The notes under the pieces: model-generated
What the model was told of the DNA's origin: nothing
Seen by the model: the letters and a program-made list of their open reading frames with translations, nothing else
The model's database searches: none
Program-made: the position numbers and the translations under genes
Part shown: in pieces, positions 224 to 10,621 of the stretch
How positions within the stretch are numbered: the stretch's first letter is position 1
How the letters are laid out: the number at the start of each line of letters is the position of its first letter
Origin: Candidatus Woesearchaeota archaeon
GTDB lineage: Archaea > Nanobdellota > Nanobdellia > SCGC-AAA011-G17 > GW2011-AR20
DNA: 10,621 nt
Assembly: GCA_018302685.1 (NCBI GenBank)
Contig: JAGVZK010000005.1
Coordinates: 1-10,621, forward strand
Reading direction: 5' to 3'

Positions 224-928
224 TTAAAGCTGGGTTTCTATCACCTGCTGAAAGTTAGCGAATGGCTGTGCACCGCTGACAGGCACATTCCCAACAAGGA
301 AATAAGGAGTCCCTCTTCCGCCGGAAGCTGATGCGTCTTTCAAATCATTTTGTATTTCACTAGCATACTTCTGGCTGTCAAAGCATTCATTGAACTGTCC
401 GGTGTTTAATCCAAGATCAACTGCAAACTGTTTCAATAATGATTCGCTCAGAGATGCCTGATTCGTGAATATCATGTTGTGGTATTCCCAGAACATTCCC
501 TGCTCATCCGCGCACTCGGAAGCCAGCGCTGAAGGCATGGCCATGGGATGGAAGCTTAATGGAAAATCCCTGTACACAAACTTCACTTTTCCGGTGTCAA
601 TATACTGCTCCTTTATCTGCTGAAATGCATCCTCGTGAAACCTTCCGCAGTAGGGGCATTGAAAGTCCGAAAACTCAACTATTGTCAGCGGAGCATTCTT
701 ATCTCCTAAAAAGGGATCATCATCAGTGTATTCCTGAGCAGACACTTCAATGATTCCTTCGTTCCCTTGAGCTGTTGGTGCAGTATTTGCATCCGCTACA
801 GCCTCAGTGCTACTGTTTCCAAATCCTCCGGTTGATATTGAAATCACAAGCAGGACAACAAGAACACCGCTTATTATCTGCCACATCGTGGATTTTTTTA
901 TCGTGACTTTTTCCTCTTCTTTTGCCAT
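224..928 (-). CDS. DsbA-family thiol:disulfide oxidoreductase (thioredoxin fold), N-terminally membrane-anchored or secreted
   Basis: 234 aa. It has an N-terminal TM/signal anchor (MWQIISGVLVVLLVISIS) and the active-site box FSDFQCPYCGRFH (CPYC). DsbA/BdbD-like blocks include IVEFSDFQCPYC, VKFVYRDFPL and GTPYFLVG (cis-Pro loop). A strong SD (AAGGAGGT) lies upstream of the ATG at 928. Confidence 0.85.
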   Translation of the reverse strand: MAKEEEKVTIKKSTMWQIISGVLVVLLVISISTGGFGNSSTEAVADANTAPTAQGNEGIIEVSAQEYTDDDPFLGDKNAPLTIVEFSDFQCPYCGRFHEDAFQQIKEQYIDTGKVKFVYRDFPLSFHPMAMPSALASECADEQGMFWEYHNMIFTNQASLSESLLKQFAVDLGLNTGQFNECFDSQKYASEIQNDLKDASASGGRGTPYFLVGNVPVSGAQPFANFQQVIETQL

Positions 929-941
929 GTTATAACCTCCT

Positions 942-1370
942 TTATTTAACTATTAGCCTTCCAGCCATGCTGCTGTGGTCTTCCCCGCAGAATACATTGC
1001 AGTAAAATTCAAACTCCCCTTTCTTGTCCGCTATGAATTTCACATCAACGGTTTCTCCCGGATTTAGATATTCATTAACCCCAAATTCAGATATTGCAAT
1101 CCCATGGGCCACATCAACGCTTTCAACATGAAGGATTACTCTGTCGCCTTCATTCACAGTTATCACTGACGGCTCAAATTCCCACTGCCTTGCAATTATA
1201 TCAAATTCCTTTACACTAACCGGCTCATTGATGTCTTCCATTTCTTGCTTGGAAATGCTGTTTCCTGAAACCTGAGCTTCATAAGAAACGCCCTCAGTAT
1301 TGCCATCGGGAGACGAGCACCCTGTTGTAAGCACTGCCAGCAAAAAAATAACAATAAAGTAGCTTTTCAT
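942..1370 (-). CDS. Stand-alone CuA-type cupredoxin domain protein (CoxII-like soluble domain), probable lipoprotein or secreted
   Basis: 142 aa. The signal peptide has a lipobox-like LTTGC. The motif VAH-x34-C-NVF-C-GED-H-SS-M exactly matches the CuA consensus H-x34-C-x3-C-x3-H-x2-M. SD is GAGGTGAT. No oxidase subunit I is present in the window. Confidence 0.8.
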   Translation of the reverse strand: MKSYFIVIFLLAVLTTGCSSPDGNTEGVSYEAQVSGNSISKQEMEDINEPVSVKEFDIIARQWEFEPSVITVNEGDRVILHVESVDVAHGIAISEFGVNEYLNPGETVDVKFIADKKGEFEFYCNVFCGEDHSSMAGRLIVK

Positions 1371-1379
1371 CCTATCACC

Positions 1380-1472
1380 TCAGCAGCATTCGCAGCCAGC
1401 TCCGCATGAGCAGTCTGACTTCATTTCAGCTTTTCTCTTCCTCTCATCTTTTTCTTTCATCTTGTCCTCCAT
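1380..1472 (-). CDS. Unannotated Cys-rich micro-protein (26-32 aa), a putative metallothionein-like metal-binding peptide
   Basis: My own translation of the minus strand gives MEDKMKEKDERKRKAEMKSDCSCGAGCECC*. The 5 Cys sit in the last 10 residues. An internal ATG at 1460 has a GGAGGA box 5 nt upstream and is the likeliest start (26 aa), and an in-frame ATG also exists at 1478. The ORF fills the copA-cupredoxin gap exactly, and its 3' end (TGAGGTGATAGG) supplies the SD of the next gene. Confidence 0.55.
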   Translation of the reverse strand: MEDKMKEKDERKRKAEMKSDCSCGAGCECC

Positions 1473-1493
1473 TAGCATTATAGAAATACAATT

Positions 1494-3491
1494 TTACTTA
1501 CCTTTGTTTGGTATATAAATTTTTCTAAAGTATTTGTTCAATGACCCCCTTAACAGATTTGCATTCGTGACAACAGTTATGCTTGACAGCGCCATTGCAA
1601 TTTCAGCTATTACAGGATGCAGTAATCCTGCCACAGCCAGCGGAATTGCGACCGTATTGTATGCAAAGGCCCAGAATAGATTCTGCTTTATTTTCTTGAA
1701 TGTCAATTTTGACAGATAGATTGACTCAACAACTCCCATCAAAGATCCTTTTGCAAGTACTATGTCGCCGGCCTCTATTGCGATATCAGTTCCTGTGCCC
1801 ATTGCAATCCCCACATTTGACTGCTTCAATGCAGGAGCGTCATTGATTCCATCACCTACAAAAGCAACCATCCCCTCTTTCTGGAGCTTCATAACAATTT
1901 TCGCCTTGTCTTCGGGAAGGACGTTTGCAACAAAGTCCTTTATTCCAACTTCTCCTGAGATTGCGCGGGCGGTCCTTTCATTGTCTCCTGTAATCATCAC
2001 AGTCTTATATCCATCTTTGTTAAGTCTTTCAACCGCATTTTTGGAGTCGTCCTTGACAGCATCAGCGACCGCGATAAACCCTATCACTTTTCCGTTCTCC
2101 GAGATTATCATCAGCGTTTTCCCCTGATCCTCAAATTTCTCTATGGTTTCTGAGTGGCTCTTTATGCTGATATTCCTTTCGTTCATGAGGGTTCTGTTGC
2201 CTATGACTATGTATTTTTTGCCGATATATCCCTCTACGCCTCTTCCTCTCAGAACTTTGAAATTTTTGACATTTTTGTATTTTTTCATGTTAATGTTTTC
2301 AACTATCGCCTTTGCGATTGGATGTCCGCTAAGCCTTTCAAGGCTTGCAGCAGTTTCCAAGAGATATTCTTTTTTGACATTTTCAGGATGAATATCAGTC
2401 AGTTGGGGCTTTCCTTTTGTGATTGTTCCTGTTTTGTCAAATACGACTGTTTTGACTTCCTTCATTGTCTGTATCGCCTCACCCTTTCTTATTAAAATTC
2501 CATTTTTGGCGCCCATCCCCGAGCCTGCCATCAGCGCTATCGGTGTAGCCAGCCCCAAAGCACATGGGCATGCAATTACCAAAACAGAAATTCCAATGCT
2601 TAATGCCCTGCTTAAATCCTGGCTGAACATCCACCAGTTGAAGAAAACAATGATTGTCAGCATGAGGATTATGGGAACAAAAATTCCCGTAATCTTGTCT
2701 GCTAATTTCTGAATTGGAATTTTTGTCCCCTGGGCTTCCTCAACCAATTTTACTATGTGTGCCAGGAATGTATCTTTTCCTATTTTTACAGCCCTTACAT
2801 ATAAAATCCCATCCTGATTTATTGTGGCTCCGATCACGTTATCCCCTTTCATTTTTTCAGAGGGAATGCTCTCTCCAGTGATCATGCTCTCATCAACAGA
2901 GCTTTCGCCTTTTGTTACAATGCCGTCTGTTGGGATTTTTTCCCCAGGCTTTATCACCATGATATCGCCTATCTTTATTTCAGAAACAGGAATTTTAGTT
3001 TCCTCGTCGTCTTTCAGTACTACCGCGCTCTTTGCCCCTAGCTCAAGCAATTTTTTTATCTCTGAGCTCGCTTTCCCCTTTGCTTTTGCCTCTACATATT
3101 TCCCTGTTATGAATATAGCCATTATCATCGAGGAAATTCCGGAATAATTCTGGGCAATATCGAAAAAACTCAGGAATCCAGTCAGGTATGCAACAATGGT
3201 TCCTAAAGAGATAAGAGAGTCCATGCTGAAGTAAAGGCTATAAAAACCCCTCAGCCCTCCTCTTATAGTTTCAAAACCGAATATAAATATTACCGGAAAT
3301 CCAAGAGCCAGAAGGATTATGTTCATTGACTGCTTAGGGGCAAGATCTATTCCAAGCAGTGCTCCTGAATACATGAATAAAACAATTGGAATCGTGAACA
3401 GCCACGCTCCGACAAGCCTCTTCTTCCAACCCCTTATTTCTTTTTCTTCTAGGGATAATTCACTGTGATCATGTCCGGAATGATTATGCAT
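1494..3491 (-). CDS. copA: Cu(I)/Ag(I)-exporting P1B-1-type ATPase
   Basis: 665 aa. P-type motifs are TGES, DKTGT, MITGDN and GDGINDAP. The P1B-1 metal-site signature is complete: CPC in TM6 ([11 protein letters not shown]), YN-x4-P (YNTVAIP) and M-x2-SS-x5-N ([11 protein letters not shown]). The N-terminus is His-rich ([11 protein letters not shown]) and there is no fused HMA domain. The start overlaps the copZ stop (ATGCATAA). Confidence 0.95.
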
Positions 3492-3702
3492 TTTCTATCG
3501 ATGCCACCTTGTAACCTGCTCTTGAAACTGCTTTTTTAAGATCATCATTGGTTACACTGTCTTCAGCTTCAACGTATCCTTTTCTCATGACGAGGTTGAC
3601 ATTTGCATCCTTGACTCCGGAAACTTTTTTCAGGCTCCTTTCTATGTTGGATGCGCACGATGCACAGTGCATTCCTTCAATCATTAATTTTATTTTTTTC
3701 AT
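3484..3702 (-). CDS. copZ: HMA-domain copper chaperone
   Basis: 72 aa. It has [15 protein letters not shown] (the GMxCxxC metal-binding loop) and a length typical of a ferredoxin-like fold. It is translationally coupled to copA by an 8-nt overlap. Confidence 0.9.
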
Positions 3703-3711
3703 ATTTCCCCC

Positions 3712-3834
3712 CTATTTCTTATTCGGTTTCTGAATTTGTTTTGCCAGGTAGAATATTAACAGCACAAGCGCTATGACCACTAATATCCACATTACAAATC
3801 CAAAAAACCACATCCCATTGTAGTAATTAATCAT
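3712..3834 (-). CDS. Unannotated 40-aa single-TM micro-protein
   Basis: My own translation gives MINYYNGMWFFGFVMWILVVIALVLLIFYLAKQIQKPNKK*. A GGGGGCTGAGAAT box precedes the ATG at 3834. The ORF fills the gap between the cupredoxin-like gene and copZ. It has a clean aromatic/hydrophobic helix and a basic tail. Confidence 0.5.
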   Translation of the reverse strand: MINYYNGMWFFGFVMWILVVIALVLLIFYLAKQIQKPNKK

Positions 3835-3855: not shown

Positions 3856-4230
3856 TTATTCAACTATTATTGTCCCAGTCCCCATCCCCATTGCGCACGC
3901 AAATCTGAATGTTCCTTTCTTGTCGGGGACAAATTCAACGTAATCCTCAGGCGTTCTTAAATTCTTTGAGACTCCAAAGTCTCTTATCGTAAATGACCTA
4001 TAGCACCCTGTAATGCTGCTGTCCAGCCTTATTCTGACAGGAATTCCTTTTTTTACAGTGATTGTATTTGGATAATAATTGTAATTCCTCATACTCAGTG
4101 TTATTTCCTGTATGATATCATCCTCTTTTGCCCCATCAGGATTTCCTTTTCCATTTCCATTCACAAACACAAACGCTCCGACCGATATAATAATGGCCAC
4201 TATTATCAGCAATATTGTTGTATTTTTCAT
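3856..4230 (-). CDS. Membrane-anchored cupredoxin-like protein with a Cys/Met-substituted metal site, paralog of 942..1370
   Basis: 124 aa with an N-terminal TM. It shares the DKKG-x-F-x-F-x-C block with the CuA cupredoxin (PDKKGTFRFAC versus ADKKGEFEFYC). The ligand pattern is C-x35-C-x-M-x-M (ITGCY…FACAMGMGTG) instead of H…CxxxCxxxHxxM. It has an ATGA-type overlap with the upstream gene. Confidence 0.65.
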   Translation of the reverse strand: MKNTTILLIIVAIIISVGAFVFVNGNGKGNPDGAKEDDIIQEITLSMRNYNYYPNTITVKKGIPVRIRLDSSITGCYRSFTIRDFGVSKNLRTPEDYVEFVPDKKGTFRFACAMGMGTGTIIVE

Positions 4231-4910
4231 CAGAATATTCCCCCTCTTGGTCCAAAGACAATCATCAGCGATGTCAATGAGGTTAATATCAAGCTTGCAA
4301 ATAAAGTGAACACATAGTCCTCCTTTACCATCCTCTCGCTTTCTTTTGTTTCTTTGTAGATCATGTAGTTCAATCCAATTAATATGACGCCTGATATTAT
4401 AAATACAATTACGGACGCTTCTTTCAGATGGTCATTTACCATCATAACAGAGCTCATTGCCCCCATTATTCCCCCCATGAAGCCAGCAGTTATCCCCTCC
4501 ATGAATCCCATAATCCCACAGCAAAGGCCATTGTAAATCCCGAATGTTATTCCAACAATCATCCCAAAAACACTTCCCCAGAACATGCCATTTGCAGCAC
4601 CAATGTAAAATCCCGCTAAAAATCCAGAGATCATTCCAACTGTCATTCCTATCATCATTCCAGACATGCATGCAAATTCCCTGTATGCTCTTACTTGCCT
4701 TATTGATGGCAGCAATATTGCATAGCTCAAAACAGAAAGAAATATCAGCAATCCATATCTAGGCATAAACTCCTCTATATACCGGAATTTTACAAAATAA
4801 AGAAGAGCCAGTAGTCCGAATGATATTAATAAAGAGTAGAGTATAGTTCTTATCAGTTCACCCTCAACCCTATTTCCATTCAACTCCCTTGCAAATAATT
4901 TCAAGCTCAT
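4230..4910 (-). CDS. Polytopic membrane protein with Gly/Met-rich (glycine-zipper-like) helices, unknown function
   Basis: 226 aa with about 6 hydrophobic segments. The central region is MSGMMIGMTVGMISGFLAGFYIGAANGMFWGSVFGMIVGITFGIYNGLCCGIMGFMEGITAGFMGGIMGAMSSVMM, with repeated GxxxG/M spacing and one CC pair. I recognise no family. Confidence 0.6.
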   Translation of the reverse strand: MSLKLFARELNGNRVEGELIRTILYSLLISFGLLALLYFVKFRYIEEFMPRYGLLIFLSVLSYAILLPSIRQVRAYREFACMSGMMIGMTVGMISGFLAGFYIGAANGMFWGSVFGMIVGITFGIYNGLCCGIMGFMEGITAGFMGGIMGAMSSVMMVNDHLKEASVIVFIISGVILIGLNYMIYKETKESERMVKEDYVFTLFASLILTSLTSLMIVFGPRGGIF

Positions 4911-5214: not shown

Positions 5215-5392
5215 GACCTCGAAAGTGATGCTTCATCACTATAATATGCAAAACAATCATTAATATAACTATCGCCATGATTGTAAATTTGCTGGAAATG
5301 CCTAAAAATGATATTGCCGATACTAGAACAAATGGAATTAAGCACGCCAAAGTCATCATTATTATGTGAACATGCTCTTTTTTATGCGGCAT
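5177..5392 (-). CDS. Small His-rich two-TM membrane protein
   Basis: 71 aa with MPHKKEHVH at the N-terminus and MKHHFRGHGKNKGDD at the C-terminus. HIIMMTLACLIPFVL resembles the H-x-MM-x-(C/A)C-x-x-P small proteins often found near heavy-metal ATPases. AAGGGGGA lies 9 nt upstream. It overlaps both neighbours. Confidence 0.55.
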   Translation of the reverse strand: MPHKKEHVHIIMMTLACLIPFVLVSAISFLGISSKFTIMAIVILMIVLHIIVMKHHFRGHGKNKGDDKSGE

Positions 5393-5909
5393 CTTGATTA
5401 ATCCCCCTTGGTTTGCATAAACTATTGATTGACATTCCAGTAAGGTAGATTGAAATAAGCAATATTAAAATTCCAAAAAGCTGAAGCTCAACCCCTTTAA
5501 ATGGAAAATACATGAGAGTAAATGGAAGTCCTATCAACCCAAACAAAAATGCTCCGCAGGTAGGGCATCCAACCCCAAATGCACTGATCCCGGATCCAAT
5601 AAATCCAAGAAACCCTTTCCCAGTAATTTTATTATGCAATCTAAATTTAAATAAGATCATAGAGAGCAATATTCCAGATAATGCAGAGGTAGCCAAGATG
5701 GAAGCCACACTAAAGGTTATAAAAGTAGGCCCGGACATCATTATGGATGTCCATAAACTATTATGCGCAACTTTGGCAACTAAAAAATAATATAATACTG
5801 CAAATATCAATATGCCTGAGACTAAACTGATTATTTTGTATCTTCTCCCGGTTAGAGCCAGGCCAATGCCTATGTTAAATTCCCTGAGATTTTCCTTTAT
5901 TGCAGTCAT
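5382..5909 (-). CDS. Polytopic membrane protein with an intramembrane CPTC motif, unknown family
   Basis: 175 aa with 4-5 TM segments. The pair sits in a Gly-rich helix start (GSGISAFGVGCPTCGAFLFGLIGLP). Its architecture loosely parallels the 145-aa protein at 6121..6558. Confidence 0.6.
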   Translation of the reverse strand: MTAIKENLREFNIGIGLALTGRRYKIISLVSGILIFAVLYYFLVAKVAHNSLWTSIMMSGPTFITFSVASILATSALSGILLSMILFKFRLHNKITGKGFLGFIGSGISAFGVGCPTCGAFLFGLIGLPFTLMYFPFKGVELQLFGILILLISIYLTGMSINSLCKPRGINQDAA

Positions 5910-5918
5910 TTTATTAAA

Positions 5919-6128
5919 TTATTCCAAGCATTCTTTGTAAATATTGGGATGATGACTCATATGCTCTCTCCATGATTCTTCAGTGTATCCTGACTCTGGT
6001 GAGCATTTGTCTTCCAAACCTTTTCCAGAGTCTTTCCATGCCTGAATTATTCCAGGAAAGAATGTTAAAAGCAAAAGCCCTACTATCAGCAGGCAGGCAA
6101 TGACATACAAAATTATTCTTTTATCCAT
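5919..6128 (-). CDS. Small TM-anchored protein with a Cys/His/Met tail
   Basis: 69 aa with an N-terminal TM (IILYVIACLLIVGLLLLTFF). The tail is …EDKCSPESGYTEESWREHMSHHPNIYKECLE, with two Cys flanking an HMSHH box. AGGAGGA lies 7 nt upstream. There is an 8-nt overlap with the upstream gene. Confidence 0.6.
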   Translation of the reverse strand: MDKRIILYVIACLLIVGLLLLTFFPGIIQAWKDSGKGLEDKCSPESGYTEESWREHMSHHPNIYKECLE

Positions 6129-6558
6129 TTTTCATTCCTCCTTTCATTTTTCTTTTATGCCTTAGCATGATCATTATTCCAATTATGTTGGACAATATTC
6201 CTACTCCTAAAAACCAGGGCTGATATCTTGCCAGAAAAGTCGCCAGTACAGAAGCCCCTGCAAGAGGAATTATTTGAAGCAAAAAATGAGAGCAACAAGC
6301 AATCATGCTCCCTCCAGATATTGCACTCGTCCCAGCAACAGTTCCTGTAAGCTGTGCGGTATGTTTAATCGAAAAATATAATCCTATTTGTATTCCAAAT
6401 CCTGCGGCAAGGGGAAAAATCAGGTACCATAGGCCCCTCAGATTGAGAAGAGCAAATTCAATACCCCTAAAAATGCTTACAACGCCGAGGTAAAAAACAA
6501 GCAACCCAACCCCTGCCATCAATCCATACAGTGTTGCATTGCTTCTATTATTCTTCAT
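6121..6558 (-). CDS. Four-TM membrane protein with an intramembrane vicinal Cys pair (ACCSH), MerT-like in logic only
   Basis: 145 aa. GGSMIACCSHFLLQIIPLAG places CC-x-H at the start of a helix followed by Pro, as in CC-x-x-P metal-uptake helices. Homology was not established. Confidence 0.6.
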   Translation of the reverse strand: MKNNRSNATLYGLMAGVGLLVFYLGVVSIFRGIEFALLNLRGLWYLIFPLAAGFGIQIGLYFSIKHTAQLTGTVAGTSAISGGSMIACCSHFLLQIIPLAGASVLATFLARYQPWFLGVGILSNIIGIMIMLRHKRKMKGGMKNG

Positions 6559-6560
6559 TT

Positions 6561-7034
6561 TTATTCATTGCAACATTCAAGCAGTTTTTTGATGGAGGAG
6601 AAAATTCCTTTTTTCTCGCTGCCTTTTATTTCTACATTTTTTGAGGAGGAATTTAATTCCCAGAACAATCCATACAGTTCAGCGGAATCATGGTACATCC
6701 CCTTTGCCTCTTCTTCCTTTCCTTCATGAAATAATCTGTTAGCTGTCTCGTACAACCTCATGCTCGAGGCAAGAAAATGCTTGCTCATGCACCATTTCTC
6801 GCTTTCATCGTCTTTTTTTACAATTAGCAACATTAGATTTTTTCTCAACTCCCTGACTACGTCCAAAATTCTAAGAAATTTCTCATCTTTGGTTTTTGCA
6901 TAGCTGAAAAAGCAGTGCTCTTCAAGGCTTACAAGGTTCATAAGGCCAATGCTAAGATCTTCCCATACAGAAATATCTAATCCATTCTTTTTCTTTATTT
7001 CATCTATTTTTTTTATGAAGTTTTCCGATTTCAT
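6561..7034 (-). CDS. Soluble, probably cytoplasmic alpha-helical protein of unknown function ending in CC
   Basis: 157 aa with no hydrophobic segment. It is charged and helical, with EEHCFF, EKWCMSKH and C-terminal LLECCNE. Apart from CopZ and the Cys-rich micro-proteins at 1380..1472 and 8212..8322, it is the only clearly soluble non-secreted product in the operon. Confidence 0.6.
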   Translation of the reverse strand: MKSENFIKKIDEIKKKNGLDISVWEDLSIGLMNLVSLEEHCFFSYAKTKDEKFLRILDVVRELRKNLMLLIVKKDDESEKWCMSKHFLASSMRLYETANRLFHEGKEEEAKGMYHDSAELYGLFWELNSSSKNVEIKGSEKKGIFSSIKKLLECCNE

Positions 7035-7035
7035 T

Positions 7036-7554
7036 TTAAATAAACTGTATTATTAATGATGCAGCTATTAAAATCAAAAATGTTAATATAATCCCTTGAA
7101 ACGGTATTCTTATGGTTGTTTTTTCCTTTATTTTCCTGTTTAGCAAGGGTGGAATAAAAACTATCAAGCCTCCAAGAAAACTGCTTAGCAATGATAAATC
7201 AATTACATATGTCTTGTTGAGCAAAGTTCCATAACCCCCTGTTAAATTAACACCAAATCCAGCTACACTGGAAAAAATTGGCAGTAAAGGAATTATTGTT
7301 GCTAGGAAAACAATTGTTATTATCAAGGTTTTCTGAAATGGAATATATCTCTTCTTCACAATTTTTGCAAACCACATTCCCATTGACATTGCAAAGGCGC
7401 CAATTAACAGCCCTATAACGATCCTGCTTACTCCAAGATAAACCCCTCCGGCTGCAGCAACTCCGGCGGTTACTGTGCATAATGGGCAGTGGGCATCAGC
7501 ATATCTGGAGAAAGCAAGCGATGCAATGAAAAATAAAGAAATTAATTTTTTCAT
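7036..7554 (-). CDS. Polytopic membrane protein with an HCPLC motif at the predicted mature N-terminus
   Basis: 172 aa. The signal-like N-terminus MKKLISLFFIASLAFSRYADA is followed immediately by HCPLCT and then 4-5 TM helices. It has an ATGA overlap with the DUF411 gene. Confidence 0.6.
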   Translation of the reverse strand: MKKLISLFFIASLAFSRYADAHCPLCTVTAGVAAAGGVYLGVSRIVIGLLIGAFAMSMGMWFAKIVKKRYIPFQKTLIITIVFLATIIPLLPIFSSVAGFGVNLTGGYGTLLNKTYVIDLSLLSSFLGGLIVFIPPLLNRKIKEKTTIRIPFQGIILTFLILIAASLIIQFI

Positions 7555-8033
7555 ATTCTCATGAATTCATCATAGCTTCCATCATTGTTAACCTGATAAA
7601 CAATAAAGTCGCTTTTTTTTGTTCCAGGCATCCCAGGGCTCCCTGAAGGCATTCCAGGCATTGCAATCCCCTTTATGTCAGGCTTTTCCATCATTAATCT
7701 CTCTACAGCCTCCAATGGGATATGGCCCTCAATAAAATAATCTCCTATGATTGTTGTATGGCAACTTTCCAGTTCCAGAGGAATTTCGTATTCCTGTTTT
7801 ATTGAATCAATGCTCTCCATGCTGATTATTTCAGTTTCGGAATTTCCCTTACTCCTAAAATAGCTTGAATAGACTCCGCAGCATCCGCAGCTCCCTGATT
7901 TGTAAAGTTTTATTTCTCCCTGAAAATTCCTGACATTTTCAAAACTGCTTGCCTTGTCTGCATTAATGGCAAAAATTCCTATGACAACAGTCGATAAGAT
8001 TATTACGGCCCATATCATTGATTTTTTCTTCAT
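7551..8033 (-). CDS. copG: DUF411 / CopG-family copper-binding protein, membrane-anchored or secreted
   Basis: 160 aa with an N-terminal TM. The diagnostic DUF411 blocks are CGCCGVY, SCHTTIIGDYFIEGHIPLEAVERL and KGIAMPGMPSGSPGM. Confidence 0.85.
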   Translation of the reverse strand: MKKKSMIWAVIILSTVVIGIFAINADKASSFENVRNFQGEIKLYKSGSCGCCGVYSSYFRSKGNSETEIISMESIDSIKQEYEIPLELESCHTTIIGDYFIEGHIPLEAVERLMMEKPDIKGIAMPGMPSGSPGMPGTKKSDFIVYQVNNDGSYDEFMRI

Positions 8034-8210
8034 TTAGCACCCTCCAACCATTCCACCATATGATACTGCACTTTGCGCCGCAGAGCCCGCTGCCTGCACT
8101 GTTTCAACACCTACTCCGGCTTTAAAGCTCAGGAATAATGCGGCAATAAAAAGCACTCCAATAGCTATCCATAGCGTAGTTTTTCTGTTCATAATGTTTA
8201 TATTATTCAT
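8034..8210 (-). CDS. Unannotated 58-aa TM-anchored protein ending in -GGMVGGC, paralog of 8324..8566
   Basis: My own translation gives MNNINIMNRKTTLWIAIGVLFIAALFLSFKAGVGVETVQAAGSAAQSAVSYGGMVGGC*. AAGGAGGT lies 5 nt upstream of ATG 8210, and an alternative ATG is at 8192. The TAA stop abuts the copG ATG. It aligns with the 80-aa protein at the TM segment, the AGVxG box and the tail. Confidence 0.65.
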   Translation of the reverse strand: MNNINIMNRKTTLWIAIGVLFIAALFLSFKAGVGVETVQAAGSAAQSAVSYGGMVGGC

Positions 8211-8211
8211 T

Positions 8212-8322
8212 TTATACCTCCTTGATTTTCTTATTGGACTTTTTTCTCACAAATCGAAATAAACTCTTGTTTTCGAGATCCTTACAACATTCTTCCTCAT
8301 CTTTCGTTTTGCAACAATTCAT
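8212..8322 (-). CDS. 36-aa Cys-pair micro-protein (CC-x8-CC) with a basic tail
   Basis: MNCCKTKDEEECCKDLENKSLFRFVRKKSNKKIKEV*. The supplied 64-aa ORF (8212..8406) overlaps the 80-aa gene. The internal ATG at 8322 lies 1 nt after that gene's stop with GGAGGG upstream. The same TAAAATGAAT junction recurs at the next gene boundary. Confidence 0.5.
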   Translation of the reverse strand: MNCCKTKDEEECCKDLENKSLFRFVRKKSNKKIKEV

Positions 8323-8323
8323 T

Positions 8324-8566
8324 TTAACACCCTCCCACCATTCCATTGGAACTGCTTCGAGCTGCTCCGCTGCCGGCCTTAGCTGGAATTGTTCCATGCA
8401 TTTCATAGTTCATTATTTCATTTTCTGTCCAGCCGGAAGTGTCTATTTTATCTTCGTTGGGCAATTGTGCAACCACATTTCCGGTTACACCTGCCTGAAA
8501 TACAAAAAATGAAACAACTAAAAATAGCATTCCAATAATGCTCCATAAAATTGTTCGTTCTTCCAT
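8324..8566 (-). CDS. 80-aa TM-anchored protein ending in -NGMVGGC
   Basis: MEERTILWSIIGMLFLVVSFFVFQAGVTGN…AKAGSGAARSSSNGMVGGC*. Its ATG abuts the TAG of the upstream gene, with GGGGGG 7 nt upstream. It is a paralog of the 58-aa protein with a ~25-aa insert (…DTSGWTENEIMNYEMHGTIP). Confidence 0.7.
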   Translation of the reverse strand: MEERTILWSIIGMLFLVVSFFVFQAGVTGNVVAQLPNEDKIDTSGWTENEIMNYEMHGTIPAKAGSGAARSSSNGMVGGC

Positions 8567-9235
8567 CTAACAGCCCCCCACCATTTGTCCGTCAGAAGTT
8601 TGTCCTTGTTCAATGCCCCTGTAAAGGTTAGAAGCTAAGTTGATGTAATTTGTGAAATCAACACCATTTGCTTTAAGTATATCCGCCTTCTGCTCATGTA
8701 TTCCAGGGAAGAACAGAACTTTCCATTTCCCTAATTCGGACAGTATTTCTTCATTAGACATTTCCGGATGATTTATCAGCAGATACTTTGCAACACCCCT
8801 CATTGCATAACTATGTGCGCATCCGCACGCCCTCTCTCCGTTTGAGAAAATTATCGCCTTTGCACCGCAGCAGTATTCACACGATATTGAGCTGCCAATC
8901 CCAATGTATCTTGCCATTTGTTCCTGATTCAGATCCATATCTTCATATTGTGATAATTTCCTTATTGTAGCATCTGCAAGTCCGGGATTACCCGCAGAAA
9001 TATCATCGTACCTTACCCCTATTTCTACCCCATAAACTGCCGGCATTCCTTTAGGGATTATCTCTGATGCAGAAACAATCCCAACACCAGTAGCGATTCC
9101 ATTTTCAGAATAAATTCTTCCAACATTGAACACGATTACCAGTGCCAAAATAGCCATTATACCTAGCTGCACATAAAATTCCGTGTTTTCATTTTTTGCC
9201 TTGCTTGAGTTTTTCATGATAATCTTCCAGAACAA
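8567..9235 (-). CDS. First operon gene: TM-anchored extracytoplasmic Cys-rich domain protein ending in -DGQMVGGC
   Basis: 222 aa, or 216 aa from ATG 9217. It has an N-terminal TM (LGIMAILALVIVFNV). The Cys cluster is SCEYCCGAKAIIFSNGERACGCAHSYAMRG (C-x2-CC … C-x-C-x-H), reminiscent of PCYCGC-type motif proteins by memory only. The C-terminus is QMVGGC*. Confidence 0.7.
   Translation of the reverse strand: MFWKIIMKNSSKAKNENTEFYVQLGIMAILALVIVFNVGRIYSENGIATGVGIVSASEIIPKGMPAVYGVEIGVRYDDISAGNPGLADATIRKLSQYEDMDLNQEQMARYIGIGSSISCEYCCGAKAIIFSNGERACGCAHSYAMRGVAKYLLINHPEMSNEEILSELGKWKVLFFPGIHEQKADILKANGVDFTNYINLASNLYRGIEQGQTSDGQMVGGC

Positions 9236-10381: not shown

Positions 10382-10621
<240 letters not shown>

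Follow-up and report, generated by a model that had tools for sequence, protein, structure and literature searches.

A conserved cysteine-rich micro-gene beside copA in a copper island of DPANN archaea and its possible role in Cu(I) binding

This analysis concerns a very small gene within a 10,621-nucleotide stretch of DNA from a Candidatus Woesearchaeota archaeon (positions 1 to 10,621 of contig JAGVZK010000005.1; termed here the window). The micro-gene lies on the minus strand between copA, which encodes a Cu(I)-type ATPase, and a gene for a CuA-type cupredoxin, and it specifies a peptide of 26 residues, five of which are cysteines. Comparison of related loci indicates that it is very probably a real coding gene, one that, judged from patterns of sequence conservation, is under purifying selection and is confined to a single DPANN clade of Pacearchaeota/Woesearchaeota-like archaea ('Nanoarchaeia'). 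By analogy with better characterized systems, the peptide has about an even chance of being a cytosolic, metallothionein-like Cu(I)-thiolate micro-protein--that is, of amounting to a free-standing version of the C-terminal tail of CopY.

To our knowledge, the way in which DPANN archaea handle copper has received almost no study, and a conserved family of 26-34-residue, five-cysteine peptides within cop operons would add to it a minimal and chemically tractable Cu(I)-binding module. If the peptide does act as a Cu(I) buffer, then it could take the place of low-molecular-weight thiols in DPANN cells with reduced genomes. The micro-gene is also another instance of a gene of fewer than 30 codons that has escaped annotation, inasmuch as it has been called on some assemblies only and named on none.

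The micro-gene and its conservation

The gap between the copA stop codon (1494) and the cupredoxin start codon (1370) is 123 nucleotides long and is filled by an open reading frame (ORF) that, in its longest form (1380-1478, minus strand), encodes the 32-residue sequence MLMEDKMKEKDERKRKAEMKSDCSCGAGCECC, with the C-terminus CSCGAGCECC. A first-pass annotation of this DNA had placed a hidden ORF here at 1380-1472, which corresponds to the 30-residue form beginning at the second in-frame ATG, and had proposed an internal start preceded by a GGAGGA box. The ORF is indeed present, and the proposed start is the same as that used by its homologues: the third in-frame ATG (1460-1458) is the one that follows, at a distance of 4 nucleotides, a GGAGGA Shine-Dalgarno (SD) box (1465-1470, minus strand), and no SD box precedes the ATGs at 1478 and 1472. 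(Boxes of the GGAGG/GGGGG type precede most other genes of the window as well.) The in-frame extension MLMEDK (1461-1478, minus strand), which distinguishes the 30- and 32-residue forms, has no counterpart in any of the aligned homologues and is probably part of the 5' untranslated region rather than coding sequence. Because the homologues start at Met-Lys with an upstream SD box--every one of the eight family members begins with MK, and in seven of them (all except L163, where none was found) an SD box of the GGAGG/GGGGG type lies 10-15 nucleotides before the ATG--the likeliest start is the ATG at 1460 and the likeliest product is the 26-residue peptide MKEKDERKRKAEMKSDCSCGAGCECC, encoded, together with a TGA stop codon, at 1380-1460 (minus strand). 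The same annotation had held that the 3' end supplies the SD box of the next gene, and this too agrees with the sequence, in which the stop codon (1380-1382) overlaps the cupredoxin gene's SD sequence GAGGTGAT (1374-1381, minus strand).

The window peptide, in which 5 of 26 residues are cysteine and none is aromatic, ends in the block C-S-C-G-A-G-C-E-C-C (1383-1412, minus strand), a presumed metal-thiolate site whose cysteine pattern is kept in eight lineages. None of the micro-gene peptides has a hydrophobic stretch and, thus, none has a signal peptide, a transmembrane segment or an export signal; for lack of a hydrophobic segment the peptide would therefore stay in the cytoplasm. The description of the ORF as hidden is only partly apt: it was not called on assembly L003 and carries no annotation on any assembly, but gene finders did call its 32-residue form on L001, L002 and L004, which are assemblies of the same organism. 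Within 1000 simulated windows generated by a first-order Markov model and read in six frames, at least five cysteines within ten residues occurred somewhere in 5% of cases, and the C-terminal motif C.C.{2,3}C.CC occurred in none (0/1000).

Homologues were sought by way of CopA, the relatives of which include a clade of about 22 clusters at 77-94% identity and, below it, a large group that does not exceed 72%. The comparison set used here consists of eight lineages: the window and seven contigs of this clade, denoted L157, L160, L163, L165, L166, L167 and L168. Every one of the eight distinct contigs with a CopA identity of 77% or more carries a homologous micro-ORF of 26-34 residues; none of 80 metagenome loci with a CopA identity of 48-75% does. 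The peptides are, in order of CopA identity to the window (whose own entry, at 100%, is MKEKDERKRKAEMKSDCSCGAGCECC): MKGKDMKKKKAETKSGCTCGSDCGCC in L157 (82%), MKEKEKKEIRMNEKESHNHKGCECDSDCGCCC in L160 (81%), MKKEKKKIKAKKKESCECNSSCSCCD in L163 (80%), MKKEKKEMKIKDDEGYCGCGSSYGCCD in L165 (79%), MKKENKKETKVKEQNHYDDHGKSECCCGSGCGCC in L168 (79%), MKKESKKEIKAKEYNHESCKCEHCSCCD in L167 (78%) and MKKENKKETKIKEQDHYDHKRMCDCDHGCGCC in L166 (77%).

Within an alignment of these eight peptides Met1, Lys2 and four cysteine columns are invariant and a fifth cysteine column is conserved in seven, so that the cysteines of the pattern C-x-C-x(2-3)-C-x-C-C are kept in 39 of 40 cells. The residues between the cysteines are restricted to G, S, A, T, D, E, N, H and K, except in L168, which has a sixth cysteine at the first inter-cysteine position; what follows the last conserved cysteines varies (CC*, CCD* or CCC*, where the asterisk denotes the stop). 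Histidines occur just upstream of the cysteine block in four members, and a single tyrosine occurs in each of the L165, L166, L167 and L168 peptides. The N-terminal half (16-23 residues) had been likened to a leader; it is Lys/Glu-rich, as claimed, but it is of low complexity, varies both in sequence and in length, and conserves little beyond the initial MK, its only invariant residues.

At the nucleotide level the eight coding regions are only 46-76% identical to each other, and synonymous differences are near saturation, with a ratio of the proportions of nonsynonymous and synonymous differences (pN/pS) of 0.2-0.7. Both TGC and TGT codons are found in every one of the five cysteine columns, reflecting synonymous flips. 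The micro-gene's frame alone, among all sense and antisense frames, is open in all eight lineages, and most homologues stop with TAA. The first-pass annotation had pointed to stops or frameshifts within homologous copA-cupredoxin spacers as evidence against a gene; the comparison that it proposed speaks for a gene, the frame being intact in all eight lineages.

The assignment of the carriers to a clade accords with the names borne by their relatives: those of CopA at 70-72% identity are labelled Pacearchaeota, Nanoarchaeota or Nanoarchaeia and those of the cupredoxin Woesearchaeota or Nanoarchaeia, and an identical cupredoxin is encoded by groundwater-metagenome contigs, which are up to 12.7 kb long and one of which bears that label. 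Anchoring the search on the cupredoxin instead yielded nearest relatives of at most 52% identity, in unrelated contexts and with no micro-ORF. A search of the peptide against 1.84 billion representative proteins (E ≤ 0.001) gave no match, not even to the peptide itself, so that short proteins evidently are not covered; likewise, none of the 32-, 30- and 26-residue forms has an exact entry in that collection, which evidently omits short proteins. A tblastn search of plasmids with the peptide, which is no more informative, gave no match, and a degenerate DNA pattern for C-x-C-G-x-G-C-x-C-C-stop found 53 matches among viral contigs, essentially all of them TGC/TGT/GGC simple repeats. Rfam models, when applied to the gap, gave only a sub-threshold match to sR52 (16 bits, as compared with a gathering score of 50), so that no known RNA family accounts for the gap.

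A putative transcription unit ending in a DsbA-like gene

In all eight lineages the ATG of the micro-gene is preceded, at a distance of 40-67 nucleotides, by an element of the form (A/C)GAAA(A/T)(A/G)TTTATA(T/A)A. In the window it is the sequence TTTAGAAAAATTTATATA (1512-1529, minus strand; TATA part at 1512-1519), which lies inside the 3' end of copA and which resembles an archaeal B recognition element (BRE) and TATA box; it is, as such, the candidate promoter of the micro-gene, cupredoxin and DsbA-like genes. In seven of the eight lineages the element coincides with the last copA codons, where it encodes a CopA extension of the form ..SFR(K/N)(I/V)Y(I/K)..; in L163, where an inserted protease gene immediately before the element sets it apart from copA, the element is non-coding and is still found ahead of the micro-gene. 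The C-terminal extension of CopA amounts to 12-17 residues (..SLKKSFRNIYISKK) in the window, L157, L160 and L165-L168, and is missing from CopA proteins at 72% identity or less. Taken together, these sequence patterns make it probable that a BRE/TATA promoter serves a unit running from the micro-gene to an oligo-T run after the DsbA-like gene, and suggest that this promoter is embedded in, and has extended, the coding 3' end of copA. (A scan for sigma-70 promoters and intrinsic terminators gave nothing above shuffled sequences; such models do not apply to archaea.)

Both of the neighbours named by the first-pass annotation, CopA and a CuA cupredoxin, are corroborated by Pfam matches and by motifs. 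CopA (1494-3491, minus strand) is a P1B ATPase of 665 residues that matches the Pfam E1-E2_ATPase and Hydrolase families and that has no fused metal-binding domain; its relatives are named copper-translocating P-type ATPases, and it harbors CPC, YN and MALSS (MxxSS) motifs, which we take, in line with the established classification, to be the signature of Cu(I)/Ag(I)-transporting P1B-1 ATPases. The cupredoxin (942-1370, minus strand) is a 142-residue lipoprotein that matches Pfam Cupredoxin_1 and COX2 and models of the NosZ C-terminal CuA domain, and that includes the CuA-type string YCNVFCGEDHSSM (C-x3-C-x3-H-x2-M). The cupredoxin is the next gene in the window, but its membership of the unit varies, since no cupredoxin occurs between the micro-gene and the DsbA-like gene in L157, L163, L166 and L168. 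The constant partner is instead the DsbA-like gene further downstream, which follows the micro-gene in all eight lineages; in the window it encodes a thioredoxin-fold protein (224-928, minus strand; Thioredoxin_4, E = 2e-34) with an N-terminal transmembrane segment and a CPYC motif, and the oligo-T run comes after it.

The micro-gene would thus head a short transcription unit that always ends in a DsbA-like oxidoreductase and that sometimes adds a CuA cupredoxin, a MauE/DoxX protein or a CDGSH protein. Starting from copA, the order in the window is micro-gene, CuA cupredoxin and DsbA-like; L157, L166 and L168 have the micro-gene followed by the DsbA-like gene; L160 has the micro-gene, cupredoxin, DoxX, MauE/DoxX and DsbA-like genes; L165 has the micro-gene, MauE and DsbA-like genes; L167 has the micro-gene, a small lipoprotein-like ORF, and the CDGSH, cupredoxin and DsbA-like genes, with an Aminotran_5 gene nearby; and L163 has a trypsin-like protease gene, the micro-gene and the DsbA-like gene. 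From the micro-ORF to the next start codon the distance is 2-20 nucleotides, and the stop codon overlaps the next SD box both in the window and in L157.

Cu(I) binding and competing explanations

The proposed role in Cu(I) binding is based on the cysteine pattern, on the small polar spacers between the cysteines, on the absence of both signal peptide and transmembrane segment, and on the cop-operon context. The peptides appear to be designed as a disordered, Lys/Glu-rich (and sometimes also His-rich) N-terminal half followed by a C-terminal C-x-C-x(2-3)-C-x-C-C cluster, the thiolates of which would bind Cu(I) as a small cluster, with roughly two Cu per peptide or as Cu4 in a dimer. In organisms with reduced genomes such a peptide, itself encoded by a gene, could buffer or relay Cu(I) beside a CopZ(HMA)-CopA pair, to which it might hand over its copper. 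The first-pass annotation had likewise suggested a minimal metallothionein-like Cu(I) binder; cysteine pattern, composition, lack of export features and genomic context all fit that suggestion, and it is from these that we infer the metal binding itself.

Several known systems bear on this proposal. The C-terminal CxCxxxCxC of CopY binds two Cu(I) delivered by CopZ, CopG holds a tetranuclear Cu cluster by means of a CxCC motif, and MymT, the product of a small, formerly unannotated cysteine-rich ORF, binds up to six Cu(I); bacterial metallothioneins have been described as rare (PMC7558416). CutF, the product of the small first gene of cutFOG, has a putative Cu-binding motif, depends on CopZ-CopA, and is required for an extracytoplasmic cuproprotein encoded downstream (PMC8456105).

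Tiny cysteine-rich metal-binding peptides within copper-resistance loci thus are a known class, to which the micro-gene adds a family with archaeal hosts and without a detectable sequence relative. The family has the composition expected of a metallothionein: it is small (26-34 residues), contains 4-6 cysteines in CxC and CC arrangements, and has few aromatic residues. Fungal Cu-metallothioneins of 25-26 residues form Cu(I)-thiolate clusters. Those of Neurospora and Agaricus, as well as the 53-residue MymT of M. tuberculosis, are likewise tiny, cysteine-rich and cytosolic, with CxC and CC motifs and polar spacers, and are expressed along with copper-resistance genes; in contrast to these, the archaeal peptides show no detectable homology, concentrate their 4-6 cysteines in the last 10-11 residues, and consist for more than half their length of Lys/Glu low-complexity sequence.

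The closest match in cysteine spacing is to CopY, whose C-terminal CxCx3-4CxC corresponds to C-x-C-x3-C-x-C(-C) in six of the eight peptides (the spacer is x2 in one of the other two, and the third cysteine is missing from the other). The cysteine spacing is nearly identical in CopY and the peptides, the motif lies at the extreme C-terminus in both, and the window locus has a gene for a CopZ-like HMA protein. The micro-protein has no CopY winged-helix domain, having instead 16-23 Lys/Glu-rich residues that match nothing in Pfam ahead of the cysteine block; it would correspond to the tail alone with an extra vicinal cysteine, and CopY has been described only in Gram-positive bacteria. It is not an HMA/CopZ protein, inasmuch as it has neither an HMA match nor a CxxC motif. 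CopG shares with the peptide the string C-x-C-C and nothing else: it is exported, has about 150 residues and adopts a thioredoxin-like fold, whereas the micro-protein has neither fold nor signal peptide, and the DUF411 profile matches not the peptide but a 160-residue CopG homologue with a CGCC motif encoded elsewhere in the same window (7551-8033). CutF resembles the micro-protein in that its gene, too, is small and comes first in a copper operon, but CutF is longer and has essential C-terminal prolines (PMC8456105), neither of which is true of the micro-protein. The micro-protein also lacks an export signal; by contrast, CutF reportedly is exported.

Directly after copA in two loci of other lineages (L136 4944-5210 and L148 3773-3982) are genes for YHS/TRASH proteins (Pfam YHS, E ~1e-17) with the cysteine-rich tails GHGCCCGEC and DSCCCGHC. 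Their position and the tails themselves (GCCCGEC and SCCCGHC) recall the micro-protein, although in these lineages, whose CopA is about 50% identical, the tail belongs to a folded YHS domain, so that the relationship is one of analogy rather than homology. They offer a hint, by analogy, that such tails work with CopA.

If the Cu(I)-thiolate reading is right, then the micro-gene might represent the first gene-encoded family of metallothionein-like Cu(I) buffers in archaea--a claim that we advance tentatively, giving it somewhat less than an even chance--and, at 26 residues, one of the smallest known. Neither 'archaeal metallothionein' nor 'metallothioneins in archaea' occurs as a phrase in the searchable literature.

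Several observations weigh against a Cu(I)-thiolate peptide. The presumed metal site tolerates change, the third cysteine being replaced by tyrosine in L165 and the spacer being shortened to x2 in L167. The micro-gene is linked more tightly to the DsbA-like gene, whose product is extracytoplasmic, than to copA, from which it is separated in L163; a purely cytosolic buffer leaves this linkage unexplained. There is no detectable relationship to metallothioneins, to CopY or to any other Pfam, NCBIfam or PDB family, albeit with weak power at 26 residues: the window peptide matched no Pfam or NCBIfam family at E ≤ 0.01, and, at E ≤ 10 and with the same low power, the eight members matched no Pfam family and a profile of the family matched no PDB chain. 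The family's distribution, moreover, is known from CopA-anchored loci, the peptide being too short for large protein databases.

An explanation that takes up the DsbA linkage is that the peptide binds another metal (Zn, Cd, Hg or Fe-S) or serves in the cytosol as a thiol donor or sacrificial reductant tied to the co-transcribed DsbA/MauE/DoxX disulfide system. The DsbA-like gene is its constant partner, MauE/DoxX genes accompany it in L160 and L165 and CDGSH and Aminotran_5 genes in L167; four or five thiolates can hold a single Zn(II) or Cd(II), and the four members with histidines ahead of the cysteine block are also in keeping with such a role. This explanation is nevertheless unlikely, given that the adjacent ATPase has a Cu(I)/Ag(I) signature within an island that is copper-themed throughout, that the peptide lacks an export signal and DsbA and MauE are active beyond the cytoplasm, and that the cysteine spacings are CxC and CC, which are typical of Cu(I) and metallothionein clusters rather than of Fe-S ligation. 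Quite unlikely is the possibility that the free peptide is a by-product and that the ORF acts in cis as a leader, the translation of which, or copper- or thiol-dependent stalling at its stop codon, sets the expression of the downstream DsbA-like and cupredoxin genes. The micro-ORF is always the first after the putative promoter, lies 2-20 nucleotides before the next start, has a stop codon that overlaps the next SD box in the window and L157, and conserves residues within its last ten codons, where arrest peptides act; and cutF is a known case of a small upstream gene on which a downstream cuproprotein depends (PMC8456105). Yet there is variation in the last residue, in the spacer, which is either x2 or x3, and in how far away the next gene lies; the downstream genes have SD boxes of their own; and stalling at the stop would leave the ribosome covering the next SD box and thereby repress expression, which is the opposite of what copper stress calls for. 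We know of no such leader-stalling mechanism in archaea. Less probable again is the more specific notion of a copper- or thiol-sensing arrest peptide, the nascent cysteine-rich end of which would bind Cu(I) in or at the ribosome exit, alter termination or re-initiation and so tune DsbA and cupredoxin translation; were it true, this would be a mechanism not described in archaea.

The first-pass annotation also raised the idea of a ribosomally synthesized and post-translationally modified peptide (RiPP), in which a Lys/Glu leader and a cysteine-rich core would give rise to a chalkophore-like product. MbnA precursors are 22-30 residues long. The peptide resembles them in length, in its leader/core layout, in its C-terminal cysteines and in its association with copper; however, the window and the seven related neighbourhoods of 6-10 kb contain no MbnB/DUF692, MbnC, radical-SAM, YcaO or LanB/C/M protein, no C39 peptidase-transporter and no exporter, as judged from Pfam and NCBIfam matches for the window and Pfam matches for the neighbourhoods, the 'leader' has no conserved recognition motif, and the hosts have small genomes. 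The idea is not supported and is very improbable. Least probable of all is that there is no gene here--that the ORF is a chance frame within a purine-rich spacer or, by stop readthrough, an extension of CopA or of the cupredoxin. Such a view draws on the fact that the ORF is very short and A/G-rich and that in the window it shares its frame with copA on one side and the cupredoxin gene on the other, a single stop lying between it and each. The frame relationship to copA is lost in L157 and L160, however, and that to the next gene in L160, while frame, start, SD box and cysteine pattern are all conserved despite saturated synonymous change and the motif is absent from the 1000 simulated windows. 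Readthrough or fusion with either neighbour was rejected on the grounds that the in-frame relationship is not conserved and that most homologues end in TAA; a fused cysteine-rich C-terminal tail was found in none of 120 CopA relatives.

Other features of the copper island

The window as a whole constitutes a copper-themed island that encodes CopA, a CopZ-like HMA protein, the DUF411/CopG homologue with its CGCC motif, two cupredoxins and DsbA. The CopZ-like chaperone (3484-3702, minus strand; Pfam HMA, E = 7e-17), which has an MxCxxC motif, is encoded by a separate gene that overlaps the start of copA by 8 nucleotides. Between this HMA gene and a Cupredoxin_1 gene lies a 40-residue micro-ORF with a single transmembrane segment (3712-3834, minus strand), which was called on L001, L002 and L004, and counterparts of which (42-74 residues) occupy the same position in L160, L163, L165, L166 and L167. 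In L167 the CopA protein itself (P0060, 3001-6111) is 1036 residues long and contains an intein, with faint matches to the LAGLIDADG and intein-splicing Pfam families.

Three consecutive genes on the minus strand (8567-9235, 8324-8566 and 8034-8210, encoding 222, 80 and 58 residues, respectively) share the C-terminus ..G(Q/G)MVGGC*, which could be either a C-terminal cysteine ligand or a processing signal. None of the three has a Pfam or NCBIfam match, and the 80- and 58-residue proteins have an N-terminal transmembrane helix. Filling the gap between the latter two genes, and starting right after the stop codon of the 80-residue gene, is a second cysteine-bearing micro-ORF (8212-8322, minus strand; 36 residues, MNCCKTKDEEECCKDLENKSLFRFVRKKSNKKIKEV) that has two CC pairs and that was not called on L001.

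A gene for a trypsin-like serine protease shifts position among the copper islands: in L163 (6018-6890) it separates copA from the micro-gene, in L157 (1130-1990) it is found beside a MarR-like gene, as it is in L160, and at the edge of the window (10382-10606, minus strand) there is a fragment of it. Five further genes on the minus strand of the window (4230-4910, 5382-5909, 6121-6558, 6561-7034 and 7036-7554) have no Pfam or NCBIfam match and encode mostly membrane proteins, some of which bear cysteine motifs, such as HCPLC or the C-terminus ..LLECCNE; this set of genes is found again in L163, L165 and L166.

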